Counted from the first letter of the stretch, positions 29,411 to 42,062 are shown. The stretch is DNA of 64,000 bases from Bdellovibrionota bacterium (GCA_044345405.1 JBIJBE010000001.1:32001-96000); one strand, 5' to 3'. Notes: generated by a model from the sequence alone, not told the origin. A program made the numbers and translations.

Positions 29411-31045
29411 CTACCTCTCCGACGCCGCGCGGCGAGGGCCTTGGCTCTCGCTCGACTTGCGTGGGGATCTGGCGTTGCTCGGCGCGGGCGCAGTCGGTGC
29501 GGATGCAGGACGAGGTTCGGGTTGACGCGCGGTTTCCACCGTCGCTCCGTCCGCCCCTTGCTTCTTCGTATCTCGAACGCCTTCCATTTCGAATTCATAC
29601 TCGTCCGGTCTGAGTCGACCGTCTGGTAGGATGAGGACCTGAACGCCGTGCTCCTTCTCAAGATCCGCGATGAATCCTCTCTTGTTATTCAAAAGGAAGA
29701 ACGCAGGAACGGAGGGCAGGCGGGCCTTTACCTTTGCCACATGCCCCACGACTACCGCGGCCTGAATCTTTCGGAGTGCCTCAAGGGCCACAAGCTCAGG
29801 GTTTTTGATATCTCCGGTGCCGTGACAGTGTTCACACCTGATATGAGCGTGACTCGTCAAGGATGCTCGCAAACGCTGCCGGGACATCTCAAGGAGCCCA
29901 AACTTTGAAAGCCTTCCAAGCTCGATTCGAGCCTTGTCGGTCGCGACCGCGTCTTGAAGCCGTCGCTCAACCGCGTTGCGATGTCGCTTGTCGATCATGT
30001 CGATGAAGTCGATAACGATCAGTCCGCCGAGATCCCGCAGTCGGAGCTGTCGGGCAACCTCTTCAGCGGCCTCAAGGTTCGTCTTATAGGCGGTTTCTTC
30101 GATGTTGGATGTGTCGGTCGCTTTTCCTGAGTTCACGTCGATCGCTACGAGCGCCTCGAGTTGCTCGATGACAATTGATCCACCGCTCTTGAGCTTGACC
30201 TCGCGAGCAAGTGTGTCGTGAACCTGCTGATCGATTCCGTGGTGGGCGAAGATCGGTTGATTCTCCTCGTAGAGGCGAACACGGGATCGATAGCGCGGCA
30301 TCACCTGACCAACGAACTCCTTTACCGTCTGATAGGTCTCGGGATCGTCGATGATTATCTCGCGCACATCTGGTGTGAAGTAGTCCCGGATAACTCGGGT
30401 AGCGAGATCGTTGTCTTTATAGAGAAGGCATGGCGCCCCAGCGCTCTGATTCGCGACGAGGATGCTCTCCCATAATTTCAGTTGCAGCGACAGGTCGCGC
30501 GAGAGTTCGCTCTGCGAGCGATCGAGACCGGCGGTTCGGATAATCATCCCGATACCCGCTGGAACCTCGAGCTCTCGGCTCAAGCGACGAAGGCGAACAC
30601 GTTGGTCGCTGTCGCTGATCTTACGGGAGATCCCTCCGCGATCACTACCGGGCATAATAACGAGGTAGCGGCCTGGAAGTGAGAGGTAGGTAGTCAGGGT
30701 CGCGCCCTTCATGTCGCGCTCTTCCTTCACGACCTGAACGACGAGCTCTTGGCCGGGTTCAAGTACATCCTGAATGCGAACTTTTCCGGATCGTGGGGGA
30801 GGGTTCTTAAAGCACGATGGGTGCACGTCGTTGATTTGAAGGAACCCGTTCCGATGAGTTCCGATATCAACGAACGCCGCTTGAAGGCTCGGTTCTATTC
30901 GCGAAATGCGTCCGCGGTATACGTTGCCCTTCGCTTTCTTTCCGATATTTGATTCGATTTCGAGTTCAGCTAACGCCGAACCTTCCACAATCGCGATGCG
31001 GCACTCTTCCTGATGTACCGCGTTGATTATCATTCTCTGATCCAT
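29411..31045 (-). CDS. rne: Ribonuclease E/G family
   Basis: GNVYRGRISRIEPSLQAAFVDIG, IDVNSG, LRDLGGLIVIDFIDM, CEHC Zn-link; short disordered tail. Confidence 0.93.
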   Translation of the reverse strand: MDQRMIINAVHQEECRIAIVEGSALAELEIESNIGKKAKGNVYRGRISRIEPSLQAAFVDIGTHRNGFLQINDVHPSCFKNPPPRSGKVRIQDVLEPGQELVVQVVKEERDMKGATLTTYLSLPGRYLVIMPGSDRGGISRKISDSDQRVRLRRLSRELEVPAGIGMIIRTAGLDRSQSELSRDLSLQLKLWESILVANQSAGAPCLLYKDNDLATRVIRDYFTPDVREIIIDDPETYQTVKEFVGQVMPRYRSRVRLYEENQPIFAHHGIDQQVHDTLAREVKLKSGGSIVIEQLEALVAIDVNSGKATDTSNIEETAYKTNLEAAEEVARQLRLRDLGGLIVIDFIDMIDKRHRNAVERRLQDAVATDKARIELGRLSKFGLLEMSRQRLRASLTSHAHIRCEHCHGTGDIKNPELVALEALRKIQAAVVVGHVAKVKARLPSVPAFFLLNNKRGFIADLEKEHGVQVLILPDGRLRPDEYEFEMEGVRDTKKQGADGATVETARQPEPRPASAPTAPAPSNARSPRKSSESQGPRRAASER

Positions 31046-31380
31046 GATCTACCTCCCGATGAGGAGGTGCTTGAAGAGAGAGAGTATGTGCGCAACGCAG
31101 GCACCCAGCGGACACGGGTCGCGCTCGTAACACGTCTTCACGTGTATATCGCTGAGTATCGTATGGGTAATTAAATCTACTCACAGGAACGCTCGCCGAA
31201 CATTGTCGTGATGTCGGCCTCCATCTCTGTACTACCTCAAGGCTTCTTGCGTGGCCGGGAGGTAGCGTGCTCAAAGCACCATCCTAAACTTGTTTAAAAT
31301 CTGTTGGCCAGTTTCCCTAGCCCTTCAGTTGTTTACCACATAAGGGTGGTAAGGGGTACCTTTTACTTCAGAACGGGACT

Positions 31381-31746
31381 TTAGGAATTCTCCAGCAGGT
31401 TTTGAATTCCTTTTACTAAGTCCTTGGTTTTGCAGGGTTTTGTTACTACCAGGTCGCATCCTGCCTCTCGGGCGTCCTGATGAACACTCGGATCATCGAG
31501 GGCGGTGAAGGCCACAATCGGTACCTGAATCCCCTTGCTTCGAATCTGTCGAATCGCCTCTTGACCACTCATATGGGGCATCATGAGGTCGATAAGAATG
31601 AGGTCTGGATTTGCTTCTTGAACGCCGGCGACGGCGGATTGTCCGTTGGTAGCGCGAACGACATCGTATCCAGCACCCTCAAGAACGAGGTCTACGATAT
31701 CGAGCGATGTTACGTCGTCATCTACCACTAGTATTTTGTTGCTCAC
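31381..31746 (-). CDS. Single-domain response regulator (receiver)
   Basis: ILVVDDD, IDLMMP, FTA, KP; GTG start. Confidence 0.9.
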   Translation of the reverse strand: MSNKILVVDDDVTSLDIVDLVLEGAGYDVVRATNGQSAVAGVQEANPDLILIDLMMPHMSGQEAIRQIRSKGIQVPIVAFTALDDPSVHQDAREAGCDLVVTKPCKTKDLVKGIQNLLENS

Positions 31747-31930
31747 GATTAATCCTTGGAAAATTAATCACTTAAAATTGAATTGTCAGCACTGCCGGGC
31801 AGTGGTCTCTCATAAGGTGGCAGGGGGTCGGGGAACTCTCTCGCTCTTTAGGAACGTCGAGCGGTCGATCTGCGAACCCTGTCATAGGTGTTGATGAGCA
31901 AAGTGGTTCCAGGGATCCAAGTATATCTTC

Positions 31931-31957
31931 CTATCGGGACTCTCCCCGGGTGTTTGA
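31931..31957 (-). promoter_or_regulatory. Candidate sigma28-type promoter for the response regulator
   Basis: TCAAA-N14-CCCGATAG on the minus strand. Confidence 0.45.
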
Positions 31958-32010
31958 AACGACGTTTTGCGTTAAGGGTGCGAAATCTTTGCTTTCTTTG
32001 ATGATTAGGC

Positions 32011-32085
32011 TCAATTCAGTGATGTTTCCGTCCGATGCTCCATTTAGAGCTAAATCCTTACAAAGAGTTGGGGAGTGTCCGATAC
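32011..32085 (+). promoter_or_regulatory. Two tandem candidate sigma28-type promoters for the FHA-SctJ operon
   Basis: TCAAT-N15-TCCGATGC (32011-32038) and TTACA-N15-TCCGATAC (32058-32085). Confidence 0.45.
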
Positions 32086-32118
32086 CCACCTGCGAGGGAT
32101 TCTTAGATAAGGGAAGCG

Positions 32119-33465
32119 ATGTTCGCGCTTGAGATAGGTTTCAAAGGTGAGAGTCCGGTATCGGAGACGATCTTCATTCGTCGTCCGACCGCGCTGATAA
32201 GCGCGAAGGATTCGGCGCACGTCGTGGTTGAGGACATGGCGTCGCTTGGTTATGGGATATTGATTACTCGTGATGTAGGTCGGCGATTCCGTCTCTCTCC
32301 CGTGTCAGATAACGCCGGCGCGTATACCCCACAGTTCCTGGAAGGTCTGTACGAAGGTGAGGCGGTGGTCGATCTCGGTCCGTTGGTGCTGCGATTGACC
32401 GCGCTCGATAACGATCTTTTGCCGAAGGAGGCGGAGTCCCCTGACCGCGCGGGTATACGTGTGCTGCGGCAGGCGTGTGCCGGAGATGGTCCGAAATTTC
32501 CGGCGGTTCTTCTTGTGTCAAATCCGCCGGCGACGATCTCGTTCGTCCCTGAGCAACCGTTGATGGTAGGACGTTCTCGGCAGTGCTCGTTGCGAGTGGA
32601 TACGCCGAGCATCTCATCTCGCCATGCGCGTATCGGTTTTGAGTCCGGTCAATTCTGGGTGGAGGACCTTGGGTCTACAAATGGTACCTTCGTCAACAAA
32701 CAGCAGATCTCGGGACGTGTAAACGTGCAACCGGGCGCGCCGATCTCGCTTGGTCGTGATGTGACCCTTGTCGGGATACTCTCGCCGGAGGAGGTGACTG
32801 GTGCTCTCCAAACGCCAGAGATACGCTTGGCCAAGCCGGTATTCCATGAGAAGCGGTATCCCTTGCTGGTGTCGCTCTCCGAAACCGCCCGCCCCGCTCA
32901 GTTAATGCTGACACCCGGTACCTCGGTCGTATTGGGTCGCGATCCCTCAAGCGATATGTGGCTCGGTGTGCCGCATGTGTCACGTAAGCATTGCCTCGTT
33001 GAGGTCACTATGTCGGGTGTTGTTCGTGTTACCGATACGAGCACGAACGGTACGAGTTACGATGCAGGCATTCTTCACAAGGACCAATCGTTCGAGTCCA
33101 CGGAGAAACCGCACTGCCTCGACTTCGGTGGGGGTGTTACGGTCGGCATATGCTTCTCGCAAGCGGATGAGGAACGTTTCGTCGCTTCAGGCGGGGCTCC
33201 CTCGACCTTTGTAGACGCGAGCAACGGGCTCGCTGTCGGTGAGAGCGGCGCGTCGTCTCGCTCGAACAGAAAGAAGAGTCGAACGACCTTTTTGCGCACA
33301 CCAGATGATTTGCGTCGCGCCGCCGCGGGCGCGAGCGCTAATCCGCTGCGAAGATTTTTGGGAAGGTTGTCAACCAAAGGGCGCCTAGCTCTCTTGGGAG
33401 TTGTGGGGGGCGTTCTCGTCGTCACCTCACTCATCGTTGGTTCTTTAGTATCAGGGATGAATTAG
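32119..33465 (+). CDS. Double-FHA-domain protein with C-terminal TM helix
   Basis: VGRS...SISSRHA...DLGSTNGTFVN and LGRD...VSRKH...STNGT; terminal hydrophobic helix. Confidence 0.85.
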   Translation: MFALEIGFKGESPVSETIFIRRPTALISAKDSAHVVVEDMASLGYGILITRDVGRRFRLSPVSDNAGAYTPQFLEGLYEGEAVVDLGPLVLRLTALDNDLLPKEAESPDRAGIRVLRQACAGDGPKFPAVLLVSNPPATISFVPEQPLMVGRSRQCSLRVDTPSISSRHARIGFESGQFWVEDLGSTNGTFVNKQQISGRVNVQPGAPISLGRDVTLVGILSPEEVTGALQTPEIRLAKPVFHEKRYPLLVSLSETARPAQLMLTPGTSVVLGRDPSSDMWLGVPHVSRKHCLVEVTMSGVVRVTDTSTNGTSYDAGILHKDQSFESTEKPHCLDFGGGVTVGICFSQADEERFVASGGAPSTFVDASNGLAVGESGASSRSNRKKSRTTFLRTPDDLRRAAAGASANPLRRFLGRLSTKGRLALLGVVGGVLVVTSLIVGSLVSGMN

Positions 33466-33519
33466 GAAGGAGCGGGTTGAGCGCGGTGGATGTGGAAGGA
33501 GATTTGAAAGGAGAGAGAT

Positions 33520-34917
33520 ATGGCAAGTGAATCAAGTGAACTTACCTTTGTGCGATGCCCCTCGTGTCGTAGCCTCGTGCCGGTGAGCGCGTCGCGGTGC
33601 CGTATCTGTAACAATCCCCTTGATGGTGGGGGAAAGCCCGCGGAGAGCGACCCATCGAAGCAGGGCGGGCGAGTTCGTCAGAAAACTATCTCCGCTACCG
33701 CGGAGGAACTGATGAGCATGGACGCGCAATCTTCAGAGAGCGTTCCATCTTCAGTCGCTCCAGCGGCGAACCAATCTCAGCCGAGCTTCGGTGATGATGG
33801 TGATCACGAGGAGGTTGATCCTTTGGCTGACTTCCTTCAGGAGTTCGAGGCTGAAGCTGAGGTGGCGAAGCCCGTGGTGTCGGCGCCTCCGCCCCCAACC
33901 GAGAATCCGGTCGCGGCGGCTAATGATGATGAGGATGATGACTTCGACTCCTTTTTGGACGAACTCGATTCCTATGACGCGTCGGTGGAAGCGCCAGCTC
34001 CTAAGCCTCAACACGTCCCCTTTACCGCGCCGGTCGCGGAGCCGCCTTTGAGCTCCGTCTCCGCCGAGGAAGACCCTCTCGAATTCGACCATGGCACCGA
34101 TCCCTTGGCGAATTTTATGACAACTGAGGATGAACTAGATCTCGATATAGCTCCTGAACCGGTGGTCGCTGTTGCTCCACCGGAACCTGAGCCCCAGTAT
34201 GTTCCGAAGCCACCACCGCCGCCGCCGGTTCGACAGGCTCCGCCACGTCAGCAGGTTGAAAAGCGTCCTTCACCTCCGCAGCAGCAACAGCCTCCGAAGC
34301 AACAGCCTCAGCAGCCGGCCGCGAAACAGGCCCGTCCCGTTCATGAGCAGAAGGGGAATCGCGAACAGAAACAGCACAGCTCCCACAATGAACGACGCGA
34401 TAACGCTCCTCGTGATCGTGGGGAGCAACCCCGTCATGAGCATCGGGCTGAGGATGCTCGAAAGGGTGGACACCACGGCGGTGGAAGGCCCCACGAGCGG
34501 TCGCCGGAGCGACCGCAGGAACGGGCGGCAGGTATCTCCGAGGCTCAATCGTCCGGTCCGAAAACTGGAAAGATGAGACCTGGACGCCTCTTCGGTTGGT
34601 TGGTGAGCTTTGAGAGTCCCGATGGTCGAGCGATCGAGCTTCGAGAAGGAAAGTTCTTCGTTACCGGCTCTAGTATAAGGGGAACTGATCTAGTGATCGA
34701 GGACGCGAGTATCTCAACGCCTCACGCCCTCATGTCGGTGAGCGCTGACAAAGGGCTTCTCATTCAGGATCTCATGAGTGAGCGGGGCGTATTCATTCGT
34801 CCAGGTGAACGGGGACAATACAAGCGGGAGGATGGGGTGATTGAGCTCAAACACGGCGATTGGGTTCGATTTGGGGATGTTGAATTTTTGGTAACGGTAG
34901 TGCCGTCAGGAAAATAA
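33520..34917 (+). CDS. Zinc-ribbon, long disordered linker and degenerate FHA-domain protein
   Basis: CPSC...CRIC; acidic, Pro/Gln and Arg/His-rich linker; ISTPHA...QDLMSERG...LKHGDWVRFG. Confidence 0.8.
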   Translation: MASESSELTFVRCPSCRSLVPVSASRCRICNNPLDGGGKPAESDPSKQGGRVRQKTISATAEELMSMDAQSSESVPSSVAPAANQSQPSFGDDGDHEEVDPLADFLQEFEAEAEVAKPVVSAPPPPTENPVAAANDDEDDDFDSFLDELDSYDASVEAPAPKPQHVPFTAPVAEPPLSSVSAEEDPLEFDHGTDPLANFMTTEDELDLDIAPEPVVAVAPPEPEPQYVPKPPPPPPVRQAPPRQQVEKRPSPPQQQQPPKQQPQQPAAKQARPVHEQKGNREQKQHSSHNERRDNAPRDRGEQPRHEHRAEDARKGGHHGGGRPHERSPERPQERAAGISEAQSSGPKTGKMRPGRLFGWLVSFESPDGRAIELREGKFFVTGSSIRGTDLVIEDASISTPHALMSVSADKGLLIQDLMSERGVFIRPGERGQYKREDGVIELKHGDWVRFGDVEFLVTVVPSGK

Positions 34918-34922
34918 ATCGC

Positions 34923-35744
34923 ATGAAAGCGCGCTACGCTATCACCTTAGGTTTGTGCATCGCCCTCTCGACGGGGTGCGGTTCGTCACCTGTGGCGGAT
35001 GACCTAGGTCAGCGCGAGGCGAACAAGCTTGTCGCGGTTCTCGGTGAGCACGGCATTCAGGCGCATGTTGAGAAGGGGCGAGGATCTAAGGCGCGGTACT
35101 CAGTACAAGTCGCCTCGGGTGACTTCGGCGGGGCCGTCGCGTTGCTGACGAAGCTCGGACTTCCGGCGGAGCGTGGTGCATCGTTTCAGGACCTGATGGC
35201 TCCGAGCGGGATCTTGCCACCTTCTCAGGACGTGGAAAATCTTCGAATGGATCGGGCGATCGCCTCGGAGGTCGAGGAGCTTCTCCTCGGGCACGGCGCT
35301 ATATCCTCGGTAAGCGTGATCGTGCGGTCTCACGCGATCCCCAACGGGACCGAGCCGTCGGTTTCGATCGTCGCCCAAGTTAAGAAGGGGTCGGTGTTTG
35401 ATCAGGATAAACTGCGTGAAGCGGTAACTCGCGCGGTTCCGGGGGTCAAACCCTCGACCATCTCTTTTTCTGTCAGCGAGCAAGCGTTTGGTGGTGGCGG
35501 GGTGAGTGAGGAGCCGCTCGTACCCTTTCTCTCGTATTGGAAGGTGCCGGTGAGTGAATACAACAGCCTCGCGTACCTACTGATTGGTTTAATGAGCGTA
35601 GTCGCGTTCTTTACCGGAGTGGCTGGATACATCTACGGGCAATACGACGCTACGAAGGTTGGTGAGTCGTCTTCGAGCTCGACATCCGCGGCTCAAGCGC
35701 GCGCTCGAACGGTTCGTACTCGCGAGGAGGATGAAGGGGTATGA
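34923..35744 (+). CDS. sctJ: SctJ/YscJ-family type III secretion inner-ring lipoprotein
   Basis: Lipobox LSTGC, LGQREANKLVAVLGEHGI, LGLP, PSVSI, VTRAVPGV, C-terminal TM. Confidence 0.8.
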   Translation: MKARYAITLGLCIALSTGCGSSPVADDLGQREANKLVAVLGEHGIQAHVEKGRGSKARYSVQVASGDFGGAVALLTKLGLPAERGASFQDLMAPSGILPPSQDVENLRMDRAIASEVEELLLGHGAISSVSVIVRSHAIPNGTEPSVSIVAQVKKGSVFDQDKLREAVTRAVPGVKPSTISFSVSEQAFGGGGVSEEPLVPFLSYWKVPVSEYNSLAYLLIGLMSVVAFFTGVAGYIYGQYDATKVGESSSSSTSAAQARARTVRTREEDEGV

Positions 35745-35962
35745 GTTTGGGAACTTGGAGATCCTTGAGTCCACGAGAGCGCGCGTTGGTCGCGGTCGCC
35801 GTGTTGGTTGATGGAAACGATTCGAGGATCTACCTCGAGTGCGACGCCGATAAGTCGGAGCAGCTCAAGAGAGCGGCTGATGAGTTATGTAGTCTCGAGG
35901 TGGACGCGCGTCTCGCGTTCGTTGGAACGGTTCTACGACTTGCTCTTGAGGAGGGTGAGTAA
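35741..35962 (+). CDS. Small protein, possibly FliG-N/SctK-like
   Basis: ATGA overlap with sctJ; LSPRERALVAVAVL recalls the FliG N-terminus; occupies the SctK position. Confidence 0.45.
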   Translation: MSLGTWRSLSPRERALVAVAVLVDGNDSRIYLECDADKSEQLKRAADELCSLEVDARLAFVGTVLRLALEEGE

Positions 35963-35963
35963 T

Positions 35964-36332
35964 GTGGCAACCACCAAAGAGGAGTTGGAACTGTATCGAG
36001 AGAAGGTTTTCGAGGAGCTCAAGGCGCGAACGGTGCGGCTCCAAGAGATCGACACCGCGATCGCCTCAAATCGTTACCTTCTTGAGCGCGCGGGCCCCTC
36101 AAGCGGGTTACGCTCGGGGAACACCCTGCGTATCCTCGCCGGAGCTTCGCACAAGGCTCGCCTCCTCCGAGAGCATGAGCGGTTGGAGCGACAACGACGG
36201 GAGGCCGCGGCGGACCTCAAGCGAGCGGAGGAGCGACTTGCCGATGTGGATCAGGAGCTCGAAGAGTTCGAGATGGAAACGGCCAGTGATGGTGTGAGCG
36301 ACGGGGACGAAGGAAGAACGGGAGAGGACTAA
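35964..36332 (+). CDS. Coiled-coil protein, SctO/FliJ-like
   Basis: GTG after GGAGG; two long charged helices; lies before the SctQ-like gene. Confidence 0.5.
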   Translation: MATTKEELELYREKVFEELKARTVRLQEIDTAIASNRYLLERAGPSSGLRSGNTLRILAGASHKARLLREHERLERQRREAAADLKRAEERLADVDQELEEFEMETASDGVSDGDEGRTGED

Positions 36333-37367
36333 GTGAGCGAACGGGATATGACAACGTCAGGAGAGGGGCACGATGTGCAGCTCTGGGAGCCGCACCGAGC
36401 GCTTCGTCGCGTGCAGCCGAGCGACGCTCAATTCTCCCGTGGATTTTTGAGATGTCGACCGGAGAAGTGGTTCCCCGGATTCGCCACGCATTGGCTGCCT
36501 GTTCTCCACGCCCTTGGGGTTGAGGCGAAGATCTCCGAGATTCGACCCGTGTTAGCGAAGCCCCCAGTGAGTGATGTCGCCTTTGTCGGTACCGTTGCTG
36601 GTGAGCAGATGGTTATCGCGATGGAGGGCGCGGACGCCGACACCTTATCTGATGAATTGGTTCCAGGCGCGGGTCCTCGGGCCGCTAGTATCGTGCTTGA
36701 GTATTTCATGCGGCGATTTGTTGGAAGTCTCGGTTTGTCCTGGAGTGGTCCGGAGGCAACGACGGTGACGTTCTCGCGGGATGTTGAGGTCTCAATGGTT
36801 CCCGTTGTGGGATCTATCCGGATATCGTGTACGGTTAACACCGTACCACTCACCCTTTGGATCGGCTTAGGCGCGCGGATGGTGGAGACGCTTGACGGAT
36901 TGTGGCGAAGGCAGGTTCAACTCCTCTCGAAGGTCGCGGCGGGCAGCTCCGTTGTTCGGTTGGAGATCGCGCAGCTCGGAGTCCCTCCACAGATGTTATC
37001 TGAGTATCTCAGTAAGGGGACTGTAATTGATCTCGAGGTAAAGGCGTCGGAATCCATCACGATAAAGGTCGGCGCTAAGCCGTGGATGCCCGCCCGTGTG
37101 CTTGATGTTGGCGGAAAACTAGGTTGCGAGATGACCCCTGGAGCGTTAACCGTTCCTCAGATAGCCGAGGGGGCCACGCAGCTCTCGGTGGAATTTGGAT
37201 CTTTTGAGCTGGACGCCGCTCAGTTGGCGGAGTTGAGTCAGGGGGGCTCTATCTTGACGACCGTTCTTCCAGTTTCGGGATTGGTGAATCTTGTTATTAA
37301 CCAGGAGAAGGTCGCTGAGGCTCGGTTATGTGTGTACGAGGGCCGATTCGCGATAGAGGTTCAGTAA
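36333..37367 (+). CDS. SctQ/FliM-FliN-like C-ring protein with two SPOA domains
   Basis: LSKGTVIDL and LSVEFG...LAELSQG...VNLVINQEKVAEARLCVYEGRFAIEV SPOA patterns. Confidence 0.72.
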   Translation: MSERDMTTSGEGHDVQLWEPHRALRRVQPSDAQFSRGFLRCRPEKWFPGFATHWLPVLHALGVEAKISEIRPVLAKPPVSDVAFVGTVAGEQMVIAMEGADADTLSDELVPGAGPRAASIVLEYFMRRFVGSLGLSWSGPEATTVTFSRDVEVSMVPVVGSIRISCTVNTVPLTLWIGLGARMVETLDGLWRRQVQLLSKVAAGSSVVRLEIAQLGVPPQMLSEYLSKGTVIDLEVKASESITIKVGAKPWMPARVLDVGGKLGCEMTPGALTVPQIAEGATQLSVEFGSFELDAAQLAELSQGGSILTTVLPVSGLVNLVINQEKVAEARLCVYEGRFAIEVQ

Positions 37368-37378
37368 GGTAGGGGACT

Positions 37379-37627
37379 ATGTCAGGAACGATAGGTGGTC
37401 CGCCGGATTCATTCTCGCTCTCGCCGTTACTCGCGCTGTTGCCAGACGGGGGAAGTCTTTATCGCCTGGAGACGCTGGTGTCATCCCTTTACGCTCGGCA
37501 GGAAACGGTAGAGGCGTTGCGTGAGGACGCTCCCGACAGAGACAGTGAACGCAGGTACGCGAGCGAGGCCGCGATGCTGCGCCAGATCCTTGAGTGGCTC
37601 TCAGAGAGACCTGGGGAGGGGGAGTAG
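37379..37627 (+). CDS. Hypothetical small helical protein
   Basis: RBS present; tightly packed in the operon. Confidence 0.6.
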   Translation: MSGTIGGPPDSFSLSPLLALLPDGGSLYRLETLVSSLYARQETVEALREDAPDRDSERRYASEAAMLRQILEWLSERPGEGE

Positions 37628-37628
37628 G

Positions 37629-38066
37629 ATGGACTCAACCCAGCGGCGACCGGTCGATACCCCGAGACGAAAATACTCAGAGGATGAGGTCAACGACATC
37701 TATCAGCTTGGCAAGCTGTGGCTTGAGACGGGGCAACACAAGCGAGCCGAGTCAATCATGAGTGGCCTTAATGAGGTCGCGCCCGATTTTGCGCCCGCCT
37801 GGTTGGGAACCGCTTTTCTCCGGTCCATCAGCGGCAACTACGATGGAGCGCTCATTGCGGTGAATACCGCCCTTCGCATTGAGCCTGAGAGCGCCGAGGC
37901 GATGGTCTACCTCGTGGCGATCTCTCTAACGGTTGGCGACGCCAGCACGGCTGGTACCTACCTGGGCGAGATTGGAGAAGCGATAGAGCAGGGAAAGGTA
38001 GCGAACCAGAACGTGATCCGATTCTACAAGATGCAACTCGCGCGGTATCAGGCGCGGGGGAGGTAG
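37629..38066 (+). CDS. TPR protein resembling SycD/LcrH class II T3SS chaperones
   Basis: IYQLG...GQHKRAESIMSGL...AWLG...GNYDGA...ALRIEP, three TPRs, about 145 aa. Confidence 0.65.
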   Translation: MDSTQRRPVDTPRRKYSEDEVNDIYQLGKLWLETGQHKRAESIMSGLNEVAPDFAPAWLGTAFLRSISGNYDGALIAVNTALRIEPESAEAMVYLVAISLTVGDASTAGTYLGEIGEAIEQGKVANQNVIRFYKMQLARYQARGR

Positions 38067-38122
38067 GGCGACGCGGCGACAGGCGACGGTCGCCGGAATG
38101 CCGCGAATTTGAATGCGTCCAC

Positions 38123-39484
38123 CTACGCTGGCTGCGCCACCACCTCTCTCACCGGAACATCGATCACGATTCCAGACTCCACCAGGTACTTGAGTAGGTG
38201 TTGATTGACGTTGTTGAGGCTCAAGGAAGCGGCTGTTACCATACCGCTCTGTGGATATGAGATCTGCTCGATGCTAAATTTAATCAGCTCGAGGTAGAAG
38301 GTGAAGAGGCTTGACTCTACCGGATAGGTGAGGAGCCTCACGTTCTGTTGAAAGAGACGAGCGGATGCTTCAAGCACACCACCCTCAAGGAGTTTGTATC
38401 GTTCATCCTCCAACAGAAGGGGCAAGAGGTTTGCGCTCACAATGAATCCGATTGGTGACTTCGAGAAACGACGCAGGTACTCCGTCAATCGGAAGAACTC
38501 TGAGTAGTTGCTCACCAGGATATTGTGTCCGAATTTGCACAACTGCTCGACAACGGTCAGAACCTCATCGTCGGTTGATTGCTGCGCTCGAAGGATGTTG
38601 TTGAGGGTTAGCTCAAGAACGTACACCGCTTCTTGGTCCCGCTCTCCCGACACGGCCCGTAGTTGATTCTTACAGGACCCAACGAGATCCGGAAACATGT
38701 GGTGGAGCGCGCGGAATGAGCCGCGCTCAAGGAGGATCGGTCGCTTGTGAAAGAACTCCGTCGGAGGGATCGGCTTTTGGTCGACGTCGAACAAGATCGC
38801 GCTCGCCAGCCCCTTGCGGAGAAGTGATACCGTTAGGAGTTTATGATCGACCTTTTCGAACGCGGGGCCGCTGAGCTCGACATAATCCACCTCAAGTCGT
38901 TTGTTCGAGATGCCGTCAAGGAGATGCTCGAGGAAGAGATTCATGTCGTGGTGGAGGTAAAACGCTCCGTAGGTAAGGTTGACCCCGATAAGCCCTAGCG
39001 CTTCCTGCTGTCTAACGTTATCCGGGTCCATCATGTGAACATGCAGGAGGATCTGATTGGGCTGAGACTTCGGTGTCGCTTGAAAGCGAATGCCGAGCCA
39101 TCCGTGACACTCATTTGTGCCGGCGAAGTTACGCGCCGATACGGTGTCCGCAACCGTGAAGAATCCTGTGGTCGCGCCTCGAGAAGCATCGAGTCGCTCA
39201 ATGAGCAAGCTGTACTCATGATTGAGCATCGAGATGAGTCGCTCTTTGGAGACGTATCTGCCGGTTCTTCCGTAGATGCTGTCGCTCACCGTCATGTCGT
39301 AGGCCGACATCGACTTCGCGACCGTTCCTGAGGCTCCGCCGACGTGGAAAAAGAGGCTGGCGATCTCTTGTCCCGCGCCGATCTCAGCGAAGGTGCCGTA
39401 GCGTGAGGCGTCAAGGTTGATGTGCAGAGCCTTTTGGTGAGGATCTTTAAGGGGCTGGAATTCGAGGGGGACGGCGGTATTCAT
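38123..39484 (-). CDS. Conserved uncharacterised nucleotidyltransferase-like protein
   Basis: KALHINLD..RYGTFAEIGAGQE..GGASGTVAKSMSAYDM..SD.IYG family motif; ERGSFR segment. Confidence 0.7.
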   Translation of the reverse strand: MNTAVPLEFQPLKDPHQKALHINLDASRYGTFAEIGAGQEIASLFFHVGGASGTVAKSMSAYDMTVSDSIYGRTGRYVSKERLISMLNHEYSLLIERLDASRGATTGFFTVADTVSARNFAGTNECHGWLGIRFQATPKSQPNQILLHVHMMDPDNVRQQEALGLIGVNLTYGAFYLHHDMNLFLEHLLDGISNKRLEVDYVELSGPAFEKVDHKLLTVSLLRKGLASAILFDVDQKPIPPTEFFHKRPILLERGSFRALHHMFPDLVGSCKNQLRAVSGERDQEAVYVLELTLNNILRAQQSTDDEVLTVVEQLCKFGHNILVSNYSEFFRLTEYLRRFSKSPIGFIVSANLLPLLLEDERYKLLEGGVLEASARLFQQNVRLLTYPVESSLFTFYLELIKFSIEQISYPQSGMVTAASLSLNNVNQHLLKYLVESGIVIDVPVREVVAQPA

Positions 39485-39761
39485 GTTCCGGAAGGTTACT
39501 CCATACTCACGGTACGCAAAAGCGGCAATTTGGACGAGAATCCGTGTAAGCCACTCGTATTCCACATGATATGACGGCGGTTTTTATACGCTCTCGAGCG
39601 TGCTCGCGTTACTTTCAACCGTCCGAGCCGGGCTGAGAGGGTGTGTATGGTGAGTTTGCGCGAGTTCTTTTTAGGGAGGTTGAGATTTCTTAAGAACCGA
39701 GTTCATGGGACGACGGTAAAAGTGCTTCCTCCTTGAAAGGAAGTGCGCTACGAAACGAGCC

Positions 39762-42062
39762 ATGTTTGACCCTGATCGTCGCGAACAAGACCCCACCAAC
39801 TCAGAGCCACGAAACCCAGCGCCCACGAGGAGCTCCGTTCTTGAGAGCCCTTCACTATTTGTGGCCTCGGTTGTTGAGGCGTTGCGTGGTAGGCGATCAG
39901 CCACGGCGCAGGTCTGTGCCGAGCATCTTTCCCGACGGGGTACGCTTACCGGCACCGAGTTTTCCGCGCTCATCGACACCTTGCCACATCCCTCCCAAAC
40001 CTCGGAGCTCGTGTGGGCATACTCTTACCTCACGCGGGAGCCGGTAACTGTGGAGCTCGGGCAGGGGCTGCCGGCGTTCCTAAAGCTCGCTCATAAGTGT
40101 CTGAACGATTCTTCTGATGATAAGGGAGTTACCGCTCGCCGCGTGGCTCGGGTCCTTGATCGAATGTTAGACGCTCGTGTCGGTTCCGCCGATATCGAGG
40201 AGGTATTTGACGTCGTTGTTGGTCATGGTGAGCGGTGCCTTCTTCAGAGCATTCTCGAGAGGGTGGATCAAGCGAGGGCTGGCTATTGGGAATGCGTAGA
40301 GCTACTCGGAGCGCTCTTCCCCGATCCTGAGTCTTTGGAAGATCTCCTGCGCGCTGTTGATCGACTGGGACCGGGCCCACACCGAAGGGAGGCGCTGATG
40401 GGGGTCCAACGAACGATAGCCGCGATCGGAGCCGCTGAGTTCGTTGCGTCCGCTGAATTCGTCGCGCAAGCTCTGGGTGAATGTCAGAGGATCGGCGATA
40501 TCGCGCTTCTGAGAGCGGCGGCCGATGGTCTTTCCTCTCACTTGGTGGGTCGCGTCGATGAGTTGATCGATCTACTTCACTCGTTTCACGAAAACCTCTC
40601 GCGATTCGCGTGCCGAATATGTGTGAGCGCCGACCGGGGCAAAGATGTGGAGCTTGACGAGGCGCTGCGACATACACTCGCGAATACACTCAAGGTCGTT
40701 CGGGTCCGCTTTGAATATGTTTCCTCTGGGGGTCGTTTTGTTGAAGAACCGCTTACAGCCCTTGGGCATATCTCGCCGCAACATTCCGACATCGAGCAGC
40801 TGGGAGCGGTGATTCAAGAACGGCTAGAGCGAGGCAAGGCGGTGAGTTCGGAGTTGGTTGGCGCCTACGCCTCGGGGCTTGCTCGTATCGAGAAGGAGGA
40901 TGGGATTGTCGCCTTACCGCCGTTGTCGGTGAAGCGATTCAAAGCTCTTGATGGTAATCCATCACAAGAGCGATTTCTCGACCGTCACCCGCGGGTTGTA
41001 ACAGGACAGGAGACTGACGATGATCTTGAATGTCTCGCGTTAGACATCTCCGACCAAACCAACTTTGAGAAAGCCCTCAAGCTGTGTCGAGAGATGGAGA
41101 ACCTTCTCGATGTACGTCTCTTAAGCAGCCGGAGAGGCGAGACCGCTACGTTGTTTTCTGACGTCGACCAAGCGCTGCGGTTCGCCCGCCATCACGCTCG
41201 GCTTGCCGCTGAGGGCCCAGCGGAGTTCGCGGCGGTATTGTTACCGGAGCTCCTGTCGGCCGTAGCGTGTGGCCGCGCGGCGCATAAGCGAGGAGGTGGA
41301 GAGACTATTGGCGAGTGCGCGGTGCTTTCGTTGGCCTCTCTCGCGAAGCTTGCCGCCCACGATACAAATATTCGTGAATTGGCATTGGCGCGGCTCTCGT
41401 CCGTCGATTGGGAGTTTCTGGGCCGTCTGCACAAAATGAATCCGAACTCGTTCTCCCGCTCCTATCCAGAGCTAGGGCTCTCAGGAATCGCCGTTCGAGC
41501 CGTGCTCGATGAGGATGTGACGTGGCAGAAGGACCTCTTGGATTGGTGGGGCACGATCGATCCTCGTGCTCGACACCGAATGGAACCCAACGGCCTCGCG
41601 TTTATCACGGTTGTTGCGGAGCGAGGGCGACCGGGAACGGTGTGGGAGCTCCTCCGCGCGCTGCCCCTCTCGTCGGGGCCCGCCTATGAGTTTTCGGATA
41701 TCGGACTCGCGCTCCTCGCGAATCCCGAGGATTCGGTCTCTCGTGTCTGTACAGACATTGTATCACCAAAAGGGGACGACCTCGGTCGAGCGTTACGTTT
41801 GGCGCAATTGATGGCGCCCCATTGCGATGAAGCTCAACGGGAACATCTTCGAGTCGCTACGAAAACGCTTTTGGATGAGATGGGTATCTTAGGAGTTGAG
41901 GCAGTCGCAACCCTTGGCGCGCTTTCTCGCACTCGAGAGGACGCGCTTCTCTTGCTGACCCGCGAGCCGGCGCTGGGTTTTGATGAGAAAGTCTATCGGA
42001 TCTCATGCGCTCGCGCGGCCGCCAAGATTCTGCGAAATATCGAACGCTCGGCTAATCGGTAA
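39762..42062 (+). CDS. Large helical hypothetical protein (766 aa)
   Basis: Long ORF rich in Leu/Ala/Glu/Arg; no recognised motif. Confidence 0.7.
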   Translation: MFDPDRREQDPTNSEPRNPAPTRSSVLESPSLFVASVVEALRGRRSATAQVCAEHLSRRGTLTGTEFSALIDTLPHPSQTSELVWAYSYLTREPVTVELGQGLPAFLKLAHKCLNDSSDDKGVTARRVARVLDRMLDARVGSADIEEVFDVVVGHGERCLLQSILERVDQARAGYWECVELLGALFPDPESLEDLLRAVDRLGPGPHRREALMGVQRTIAAIGAAEFVASAEFVAQALGECQRIGDIALLRAAADGLSSHLVGRVDELIDLLHSFHENLSRFACRICVSADRGKDVELDEALRHTLANTLKVVRVRFEYVSSGGRFVEEPLTALGHISPQHSDIEQLGAVIQERLERGKAVSSELVGAYASGLARIEKEDGIVALPPLSVKRFKALDGNPSQERFLDRHPRVVTGQETDDDLECLALDISDQTNFEKALKLCREMENLLDVRLLSSRRGETATLFSDVDQALRFARHHARLAAEGPAEFAAVLLPELLSAVACGRAAHKRGGGETIGECAVLSLASLAKLAAHDTNIRELALARLSSVDWEFLGRLHKMNPNSFSRSYPELGLSGIAVRAVLDEDVTWQKDLLDWWGTIDPRARHRMEPNGLAFITVVAERGRPGTVWELLRALPLSSGPAYEFSDIGLALLANPEDSVSRVCTDIVSPKGDDLGRALRLAQLMAPHCDEAQREHLRVATKTLLDEMGILGVEAVATLGALSRTREDALLLLTREPALGFDEKVYRISCARAAAKILRNIERSANR

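Follow-up and report, generated by a model that had tools for sequence, protein, structure and literature searches.

A type III secretion-like ring and sorting-platform operon in a Bdellovibrionota bacterium, linked in relatives with Tad pilus and putative phosphothreonine-signalling genes

[quoted passage not shown] This system, T3SS* (mxan_2434-2464), has no secretin, needle or translocon and acts together with the Kil Tad pilus (PMC12075869; PMC3459982). T3SS* and Kil co-localise at prey contacts, the pilus tips need T3SS*, and T3SS* recruitment together with most pilus-tip killing functions connects the two (PMC12075869). FHA proteins abound in the Kil clusters (PMC8460266), and a 2025 review describes the co-occurrence of Kil and T3SS* as apparently restricted to the Cystobacterineae (PMC12428579). 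Secretin-less and needle-less 'Myxo' systems have been placed at the base of the non-flagellar T3SS, for which the core list is SctC, J, N, Q, R, S, T, U and V; the 'Myxo' gene set consists of the export apparatus, the ATPase and SctJ, with or without SctI and SctD (PMC3459982). Here we examine an eight-gene operon (g1 to g8) at positions 32119-38066 of a 64,000-nucleotide stretch of Bdellovibrionota DNA (GCA_044345405.1, JBIJBE010000001.1:32001-96000; hereafter the window), which is part of contig C76 of a 3.59 Mb assembly in 85 contigs that is 99.4% complete. We propose that the operon probably encodes the ring and sorting-platform module of a machine resembling the Myxococcus T3SS*, coupled to a Tad pilus and to phosphothreonine signalling.

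The T3SS affiliation is carried by two genes of the operon. The product of g3 matches PF01514 at 37.1 bits (cut-off 24.4) and the SctJ model TIGR02544 (E-value 6.2e-19; positions 5-187 of the 193 in the profile are covered), with a score under the equivalog cut-off; the sequence reads as having a lipobox (LSTGC, with Cys19), and a transmembrane segment at amino acids (aa) 214-240 is followed by a tail of about 33 aa. The product of g6 matches PF01052 in two stretches (51.4 bits) and the SctQ model TIGR02551 (E 3.5e-8), with two C-terminal SPOA domains at window positions 37008-37136 and 37179-37364. Together with the class-II-like TPR chaperone g8, these matches uphold the proposal of the initial annotation, a first reading of the window, that the genes are T3SS-derived.

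That reading had also reported no SctC, SctF, SctL, SctN, SctRSTUV or flagellar gene in the window, which holds for the families searched, and had called for a whole-genome search, which located Sct parts and a separate flagellar set on other contigs. All matches to PF00771, PF01312, PF00813, TIGR01026 and PF00263 lie on contigs other than that of the window. Genome-wide there are three FHIPEP, three YscJ/FliF and two FliP genes, two genes for FlhB plus one for a stand-alone FlhB C-terminal domain, two FliI/SctN ATPases that exceed the cut-off, and two secretins, with exactly one non-flagellar set of SctR, SctU and SctN. Contig C78 encodes SctR (NF009438, 187 bits, above cut-off), SctS, SctT and SctU, each with an Sct rather than a flagellar model as its best NCBIfam match, in the order 119-aa protein, 348-aa unknown, SctR, SctS, SctT, SctU, hybrid histidine kinase and 126-aa FlhB-C-like protein. 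An SctL-like protein and SctN (TIGR02546, 450.7 bits versus 434.9 for FliI) are found on C22, and SctV (hrcV, 562 bits versus 515 for FlhA) on C67, so that the Sct model outscores its flagellar counterpart for SctR/S/T/U/V/N/L alike. The flagellar set is on C9, C32 and C45 and includes FliG, FliM/N, FliP, FlhB, FlhA and FliI. The system is thus split between contigs, as had been suggested, and the window holds only the ring and sorting-platform part, the gate and the ATPase being encoded elsewhere. Two ORFs (open reading frames) after the C22 SctN (174 and 90 aa) look like spurious frames and were not counted as SctO.

The SctU protein on C78 covers only profile positions 1-258 of 341, the C-terminal autocleaving domain being absent (C78:439-4853). 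The same truncation is seen in relatives, where nine of ten ORFs in the SctU position (203-248 aa) match TIGR01404 only at about positions 1-240 of 341 and the tenth (188 aa) has no TIGR01404 match. An NPxH motif was found in none of the ORFs after SctQ in the 17 loci scanned. The free 126-aa FlhB-C-like protein matches TIGR00789 (E 1.9e-13) and is encoded 3 kb downstream of SctU, beyond the 1030-aa hybrid histidine kinase.

A whole-genome search with PF00263 returned two secretins, neither of them a T3SS SctC: one is the GspD of a type II secretion system (T2SS) operon and the other is of the AMIN/STN-bearing PilQ type. The loci in question, at C61:66947-75190 and C34:2145-8089, are the T2SS operon, comprising GspD, E, F and G, and a type IVa pilus (T4aP) PilQ-type secretin locus. 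For the needle SctF, a small and fast-evolving protein, the single profile used (PF09392) gave no match at E <= 0.1. A 119-aa ORF two genes upstream of sctR (C78:7290-7649, minus strand) matches the SctI C-terminus model PF17001 below its cut-off (E 8.4e-4, 20.2 bits), and tblastn detected no match to it across the 45 representative loci described below. Judged from these sequence matches, the organism has a complete inner-membrane and cytoplasmic core of a non-flagellar T3SS with no T3SS secretin and no needle match, in line with the needle-less T3SS* that the initial annotation had named for comparison. This content, namely export apparatus, ATPase and SctJ, with no secretin and no needle match to the single profile, agrees with the 'Myxo' definition (PMC3459982).

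On C67, SctV lies within a run of genes on one strand that reads PP2C, FHA protein, Ser/Thr kinase, CpaE, Flp, CpaB, TadA, TadB, TadC, SctV and a pseudokinase-HEAT protein. The Tad operon is complete for TadA, TadB/C, CpaB, CpaE and Flp (T2SSE, two T2SSF, RcpC/CpaB and ParA-like AAA_31), the Ser/Thr kinase scores 184.6 bits against Pkinase, and the Flp pilin 38.5 bits against Flp_Fap. A 410-aa protein of this operon has a C-terminal FHA match just under the cut-off (20.1 bits), and no FHA domain was found on TadA at E < 0.01.

The connection between C67 and the window becomes visible in related genomes, and the comparison of synteny across relatives that had been advised revealed one joined locus in other orders of the phylum, which is small and uncultured (124 genomes in our collection). 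We compared about 20 kb around SctQ in 45 genomes from 35 families, ten picked for long contigs and 35 so that each family with a match was represented, using tblastn for mapping. All five core genes (g1, g2, SctJ, g4 and SctQ) were detected in 33 of the 45 loci; most of the misses occur where a contig ends or where the locus is very divergent, and in the gene orders inspected the matches keep this order. SctR comes next after SctQ in 29 of the 41 loci with at least 1.5 kb downstream, followed by ORFs of the sizes of SctS, SctT and a short SctU and then by g7 and g8. Among the 12 loci from other orders whose upstream flank reaches at least 3 kb, 11 have SctV and the pseudokinase-HEAT gene immediately before g1. 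TadC precedes SctV in nine of 13 SctV-bearing loci (the other four end inside SctV), eight of these nine also show TadA, TadB and CpaB, and PP2C, FHA, Ser/Thr kinase and CpaE genes lie upstream of the Tad genes in 7/7 upstream extensions. The joined locus of other orders therefore reads PP2C, FHA, Ser/Thr kinase, CpaE, Flp, CpaB, TadABC, SctV, pseudokinase-HEAT and then the operon genes, with SctRSTU between SctQ and the 82-aa g7.

In other families of the organism's own order, SctV and the pseudokinase are upstream of g1 in one of 22 loci (family f11); a second f11 locus with a shorter flank also has them, and an own-genus locus (L064) does not. In a single-contig genome of the same order the pseudokinase lies at about 1.55 Mb and SctQ at about 0.12 Mb, and the split is not an assembly artefact, because the modules are far apart within one contig. 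The own-family set comprises 23 loci, 22 from the organism's genus and one from a sister genus. Eight of these read SctQ, g7, g8 (L032-L035 and L037-L040; SctQ 66-90% identical), a ninth ends at SctQ, five show no SctR match in a short flank, and nine more distant ones (eight of the own genus and that of the sister genus) still read SctQ, SctR. The excision of sctRSTU appears to be recent, since more distant species of the same genus keep the SctQ-SctR order. The joined order is the more widespread across families in this comparison, which was made without a rooted tree, and gene order indicates that the eight genes described here are a derived piece of a larger locus, one with some twenty or more genes.

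The system is widely retained. Of the 124 genomes, 112 (68 of 73 of high quality) have SctQ homologues, which puts SctQ in 57 of 64 genera; the pseudokinase occurs in 117 of the 124 and in 62 of 64 genera. A search with SctN gave 150 representative proteins, and of ten looked up two carried names, one of them from a genome titled Candidatus Dadabacteria. In a search of a species-genome collection, 22 of the best 80 loci contained full-length g1 homologues, all from metagenome-assembled genomes (MAGs) titled Bdellovibrionota, Bdellovibrionales, Deltaproteobacteria, Pseudomonadota or 'bacterium'. Among these best 80 loci, every full-length homologue with enough flank is accompanied by Sct genes; the remaining 58 loci match through a single FHA domain, come from unrelated taxa and lack an Sct neighbour.

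All eight plus-strand ORFs described in the initial annotation are present and tightly coupled (Table 1), with spacers of 0-11 nt or a 4-nt overlap at every junction except g1/g2, which at 54 nt is the widest. The g2/g3 spacer is 5 nt, g3 and g4 overlap by 4 nt, and the remaining junctions measure about 1 nt (g4/g5), 0 nt (g5/g6), 11 nt (g6/g7) and 1 nt (g7/g8), assuming starts at GTG 35964 for g5 and ATG 37629 for g8. Each of these starts is preceded by a purine-rich, Shine-Dalgarno-like stretch and is the most likely one for its gene; that of g5 follows GAGGAGG and is preferred to 35808, with 35955 as an alternative. Ratios of nonsynonymous to synonymous substitution (dN/dS) for g3 to g8 were 0.04-0.12 against three relatives of the same genus (L032-L034), with dS of 0.85-2.6, near saturation. 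Such low ratios, even with dS near saturation, mark g3 to g8 by their sequence evolution as genuine genes under purifying selection. A promoter and terminator scan of 31300-38400 gave counts no higher than the shuffled expectation and was uninformative.

Table 1 Genes of the operon in the window
Feature	Coordinates	Strand	Basis
g1, predicted tail-anchored triple-FHA-like protein, 448 aa	32119..33465	+	Pfam FHA, PF16697, structure model
g2, Zn-ribbon/FHA protein, 465 aa	33520..34917	+	Pfam FHA, CxxC motif
g3, SctJ-type inner-membrane ring lipoprotein, 273 aa	34923..35744	+	PF01514, TIGR02544
g4, helical protein, 73 aa	35741..35962	+	No family; signature gene of the system
g5, charged helical coiled-coil-like protein, ~122 aa	35964..36332	+	No family; start uncertain
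g6, SctQ-type sorting-platform protein, 344 aa	36333..37367	+	PF01052, TIGR02551
g7, small protein, 82 aa	37379..37627	+	No family; predicted g8 ligand
g8, TPR protein, 145 aa	37629..38066	+	TPR_19; class II / SctY-type chaperone likeness

None of the genes flanking the operon is tied to the secretion system. Upstream are a single-domain response regulator (31381-31746, minus), RNase E/G (29411-31045, minus) and a weakly matching GAF protein; downstream are ORFs of 480 aa (38123-39565, minus) and 766 aa (39762-42062, plus) without a Pfam match at E <= 0.01.

The first gene, g1, was initially described as a double-FHA protein. Pfam FHA matches it in two stretches (104.8 bits) and PF16697, the YscD cytoplasmic domain, at 56.1 bits. 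Its AlphaFold model (mean predicted local distance difference test, pLDDT, 87.6) has three beta-sandwich domains at aa 1-95, 128-220 and 249-345, the first FHA-like and the other two canonical FHA domains, and because the model has three such domains g1 is better described as triple-FHA-like. A disordered linker leads to a terminal helix (aa 419-447) that coincides with the sole hydrophobic segment (aa 421-448). The protein ends at this transmembrane helix, without a periplasmic domain, and so departs from the SctD plan of FHA, transmembrane and periplasmic ring-building domains; nearly all of the 39 orthologous ORFs likewise have a hydrophobic C-terminal tail without a periplasmic extension. 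Phosphothreonine-binding FHA domains share a motif of conserved Gly-Arg, Ser-x-x-His and Asn-Gly. Across 35 orthologues of g1, G273, R274, S288, H291, N310 and G311 are invariant, and G151, R152, H169, S186 and G189 are invariant or nearly so. With the Ser/Thr kinase and PP2C genes at the head of the joined locus, this makes the proposed control by phosphothreonine binding plausible. Structure comparison, which had been suggested as a check, recovered FHA folds for g1; the best matches were generic phosphothreonine-binding FHA domains, led by the tandem FHA of EssC and including mycobacterial FhaA and GarA, Bdellovibrio DgcB and, at rank 29, the FHA of Chlamydia CT664.

The g2 protein consists of an N-terminal four-Cys zinc ribbon (weak zinc-ribbon matches), a long low-complexity middle rich in acidic residues, Pro and Gln, and a partly degenerate C-terminal FHA domain (Pfam, 26.6 bits at aa 383-452). 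The motif CxxC-x(8-16)-CxxC is retained in 38 of 38 N-terminal orthologue matches; in the FHA domain the Gly-Arg and Asn positions read as altered. This domain resembles the FHA of the 410-aa protein in the C67 Tad operon (blastp 3e-12).

The last gene of the C67 run encodes an 824-aa protein (C67:42397-44871; L028:6397-8871, minus) with a kinase-fold N-terminus and HEAT-like repeats. A search with the single sequence gave a chance match only; a profile of 13 orthologues matched StkP (4.6e-27) and PknB (about 1e-20) over the first 280-330 positions, and a weak HEAT_2 match lies in the region after the kinase fold. The alignment shows an almost invariant Trp in place of the catalytic Lys, LGD in place of HRD and no DFG Asp, and since these residues are not kept the protein is most likely a Hanks-type pseudokinase. 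SctV adjoins it in 24 of 30 fetched loci, the flanks of the other six being too short to tell. Weak pseudokinase-like matches were also seen in four of the six genomes of family f28, a lineage that may have lost or replaced its T3SS* part.

Three small genes of the operon (g4, g5 and g7) have no family match in Pfam or NCBIfam. g4 was detected by tblastn in 42 of the 45 representative loci, has dN/dS of 0.04-0.11 and is modelled as four helices (pLDDT 91.7). Its profile gave a chance-level match against the PDB (E 0.06), Foldseek returned nothing for its model at E <= 0.001, VIA-align found unrelated helical proteins (best Z 5.6), and the top value of an Atlas feature search (0.81) was at noise level. 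A derivation of g4 from FliG_N was rejected: the FliG_N profile matches the true FliG on C45 only, and hhalign of the g4 family with the organism's own FliG gave a probability of 0.1. g5 is present in 22 of the 23 own-family loci yet in only three of the 45 representative ones, a distribution that identifies it as a lineage-restricted insert between g4 and SctQ. Its dN/dS is 0.09-0.12, its coiled coil was judged by eye, and its reading as SctO found no backing in any search run.

g7 and g8 appear to form a pair. The g8 protein matches TPR_19 (29.6 bits) and, below their cut-offs, TIGR02552 (LcrH/SycD; E 1.4e-5) and NF052415 (SctY; E 1.6e-4). A predicted g8-g7 complex reached a median score of 0.84 versus 0.00 for the best control, with a partner pLDDT of 79 or more and runs that agreed in at least 79% of contacts. 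The mark used was attained by 58 of 80 solved complexes and two of 110 mismatched pairs, counts that hold only roughly here because custom alignments were fed in; part of the pass may also reflect likeness, since T3SS TPR chaperone-ligand complexes have already been solved. The modelled interface comprises g7 residues 14-27, which cover the invariant P16...P22 segment, and 59-73; 17 orthologues show no change at P16, P22, R40, E63 and M66. Class II chaperones bind translocators at a short Pro/Leu motif, and g7 has a conserved PLxxLLP segment, of different spacing from that motif, together with a C-terminal helix. In one relative the equivalents of g7 and g8 appear as a single 235-aa ORF (L060:6655-7362, minus; G043), apparently a natural fusion. 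The modelling supports binding of g7 by g8.

The machine we propose would be assembled as follows. SctJ (g3) would form a lipoprotein ring around a gate of SctR/S/T, the C-terminally truncated SctU and SctV, and SctQ (g6) a sorting platform with the SctL and SctN encoded elsewhere. In place of the cytoplasmic half of SctD, g1 would tether this platform to the membrane in a phosphothreonine-dependent manner, g2 and g4 would act as system-specific adaptors, and the TPR chaperone g8 would hold g7, which may be an early substrate or a regulator. That the genes for Tad, a kinase, a phosphatase, a pseudokinase and four FHA-bearing proteins stay linked with the system argues for T3SS* and the Flp pilus acting as a unit under phosphothreonine control, coupled genetically and probably physically to each other and to the Hanks kinase/PP2C/pseudokinase set. 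As the system has no outer-membrane conduit of its own, its cargo would most likely pass to the periplasm or be handed to the Tad pilus, as has been suggested for Kil/T3SS*, the predation machinery of Myxococcus. The gene content, architecture, conservation, synteny and predicted g7-g8 pairing are computational results, from which we infer the assembly, the phosphothreonine switch and the hand-over to the pilus. A role in predation or contact-dependent killing is suggested by the Myxococcus parallel and by the labels of related MAGs. More tentatively, and in our view rather doubtfully, the whole might be a single hybrid envelope machine, with its genes in one super-operon in other orders, in which the Flp/Tad pilus replaces the T3SS needle and secretin, T3SS*, with its switch-less SctU and with g1 as half an SctD, loads cargo onto or through the pilus, and kinase, phosphatase, pseudokinase and FHA proteins gate its firing.

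Several observations weigh against this interpretation. The fold of g1 matches generic FHA domains no worse than the FHA of SctD, and g1 does not have the ring-forming periplasmic half by which SctD is defined; its description as an SctD substitute is drawn from its position before sctJ and its topology and not from its fold, since that is generic. All Sct equivalog scores except that of SctR are below the NCBI cut-off. The Tad pilus has no dedicated secretin, there being no third PF00263 match in the genome, which is odd for a surface pilus. In controls the needle profile PF09392 matched in one of 14 genomes and never above cut-off, so a divergent needle could escape it, and the SctI-like match together with the Gln-rich C-terminus of a 138-aa protein on C18 may leave room for a short rod. 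The T3SS* modules of this genome sit on different contigs (at least four), and their co-regulation would have to be presumed. Nor is the system universal in the phylum, because family f28 has no SctQ match in any of its six genomes, five of them at least 91% complete.

Other readings were weighed against the same data. The initial annotation had called the system minimal and perhaps repurposed, which would correspond to a stand-alone ring and platform working without a gate, for instance in signalling or as a scaffold. The operon has no gate gene here or in its nearest relatives (eight of 23 own-family loci), and g1 has no periplasmic domain, as such a module might have it. Most relatives, however, carry SctRSTU between SctQ and g7, and those of other orders SctV directly upstream; the genome itself retains one non-flagellar SctR, SctU and SctN set along with SctS, SctT, SctV and SctL; and the loss of sctRSTU from the locus is recent, distant species of the genus having kept SctQ-SctR. 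We therefore regard a gateless module as very unlikely, and 'minimal' no longer describes the system. Decay would account for core parts that are absent or truncated (secretin, needle and half of SctD and SctU) and for the scattering of genes in this genome, but a relic scarcely agrees with intact frames and dN/dS of 0.04-0.12 even in small ORFs, or with the presence of SctQ in 57 and the pseudokinase in 62 of 64 genera. The same truncations recur phylum-wide, which speaks for design rather than decay, and we give a decaying injectisome next to no credence.

An accessory or second flagellar export system made of divergent FliF- and FliN-type parts is just as hard to credit. The organism is flagellated, PF01514 and PF01052 are common to FliF and FliM/N, and a FliA/WhiG-like sigma factor ends the locus in some relatives (L055, L062, L089 and L090). 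Against this, a full separate flagellar set is present, including a 589-aa FliF frame on C32; g3 encodes a 273-aa lipoprotein scoring as SctJ (E 6e-19) and not as FliF; Sct models beat flagellar ones for SctR/S/T/U/V/N/L; and FliG_N matches, confined to C45, are absent near the operon. A machine aimed at eukaryotic hosts, scattered like that of Chlamydia, seems highly improbable as well. CdsD carries FHA domains, and the FHA of CT664 is among the fold matches of g1, at rank 29. Chlamydial T3SS genes are scattered too (PMC3459982), but no T3SS secretin, no needle match with the single profile and no recognisable translocon were found here, and the genome (3.6 Mb) is of free-living size, flagellated and equipped with T4aP, T2SS and Tad. 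The host interaction entertained in the initial annotation is unsupported.

A second, partial T3SS-like cluster was noted on C18 (17112-22179; L030:5112-10179), with a FliA/WhiG-like sigma factor, SctJ2, a 70-aa protein, SctQ2, a 138-aa protein and SctV2. SctV2 shares 44.6% identity with the SctV of C67 across some 300 aa. SctQ2, a SPOA protein, is fast-evolving, with an in-frame TGA in five of its matches, and occurs in 34 of 34 other genomes of the genus and in none of 63 other genera (E <= 1e-5). The cluster is reminiscent of the 'short' and 'long' Myxococcus loci.

A literature search, short on subscription journals and without supplements, found no publication on a locus of the kind proposed here. 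Within the same limits it found no phylum-wide, Tad-linked, needle-less T3SS outside Myxococcus, no Tad, T3SS* and kinase/phosphatase set in one locus, and no tail-anchored triple-FHA protein replacing SctD, switch-less SctU or pseudokinase-HEAT protein. How a T3SS without needle and secretin delivers anything is an open question in Myxococcus, and the joined locus in another lineage provides independent comparative evidence for Tad and T3SS* as a functional unit. It also supplies candidate coupling or regulatory parts (g1, the pseudokinase-HEAT protein, g4 and the g7/g8 pair), presents a natural SctU without the switch domain, and adds to the variety of early-branching T3SS forms without secretin that Abby and Rocha discuss. 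Were the hybrid machine real, it would constitute a distinct phylum-wide secretion or predation apparatus, a living example of a needle-less T3SS reaching a target, and genetic proof of a coupling that the Myxococcus Kil/T3SS* work infers from co-localisation.

Compared with canonical injectisomes (Ysc/SPI-1-type), the system has homologous SctJ, SctQ, SctR/S/T/U/V, SctN and SctL, and a TPR chaperone encoded beside a small partner protein, as in SctY/SctX and class II chaperone pairs. It differs in that no SctC was found genome-wide and no SctF match with the single profile, in an SctD equivalent without ring-building periplasmic domains, and in an SctU without the autocleaving switch domain, with equivalog scores below cut-off but for one. 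With the PpkA/PppA/Fha1 pathway of type VI secretion (the T6SS) it shares a Hanks kinase, PP2C and FHA proteins encoded with a secretion machine; the machine is another one, and the present system has several FHA proteins, including a membrane-anchored one, as well as a conserved pseudokinase-HEAT protein. The chlamydial T3SS with CdsD (CT664) likewise has scattered genes and, in the SctD position, a protein with more than one FHA domain, but CdsD has a periplasmic part. Chlamydiae also keep needle and secretin; a secretin was recruited in 'Chlamy' according to PMC3459982.

The Myxococcus T3SS* remains the apt comparison, as the initial annotation had recognised. In Myxococcus the genes form separate clusters (mxan_2434-2464, MXAN_3102-3108 and MXAN_4648-4661), whereas here they form one locus in other orders. 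The present lineage lies outside the Cystobacterineae, and the likeness observed is one of gene content. Further differences are a g1 without a periplasmic domain, an SctU without its C-terminal domain, the short Kil-type secretin, which was not found here, and TadA, on which no FHA domain was detected at E < 0.01 and which contrasts in this with the FHA-bearing KilF. Seef et al. offer the T6SS threonine-phosphorylation pathway as an analogy for Kil (PMC8460266). Common to both systems are an export apparatus, ATPase, SctJ and sorting platform without a T3SS secretin or recognisable translocon (and here with no needle match to the single profile), possibly an SctI-like protein (a weak match here), a Tad-type pilus as partner, and an abundance of FHA proteins around the Tad genes.

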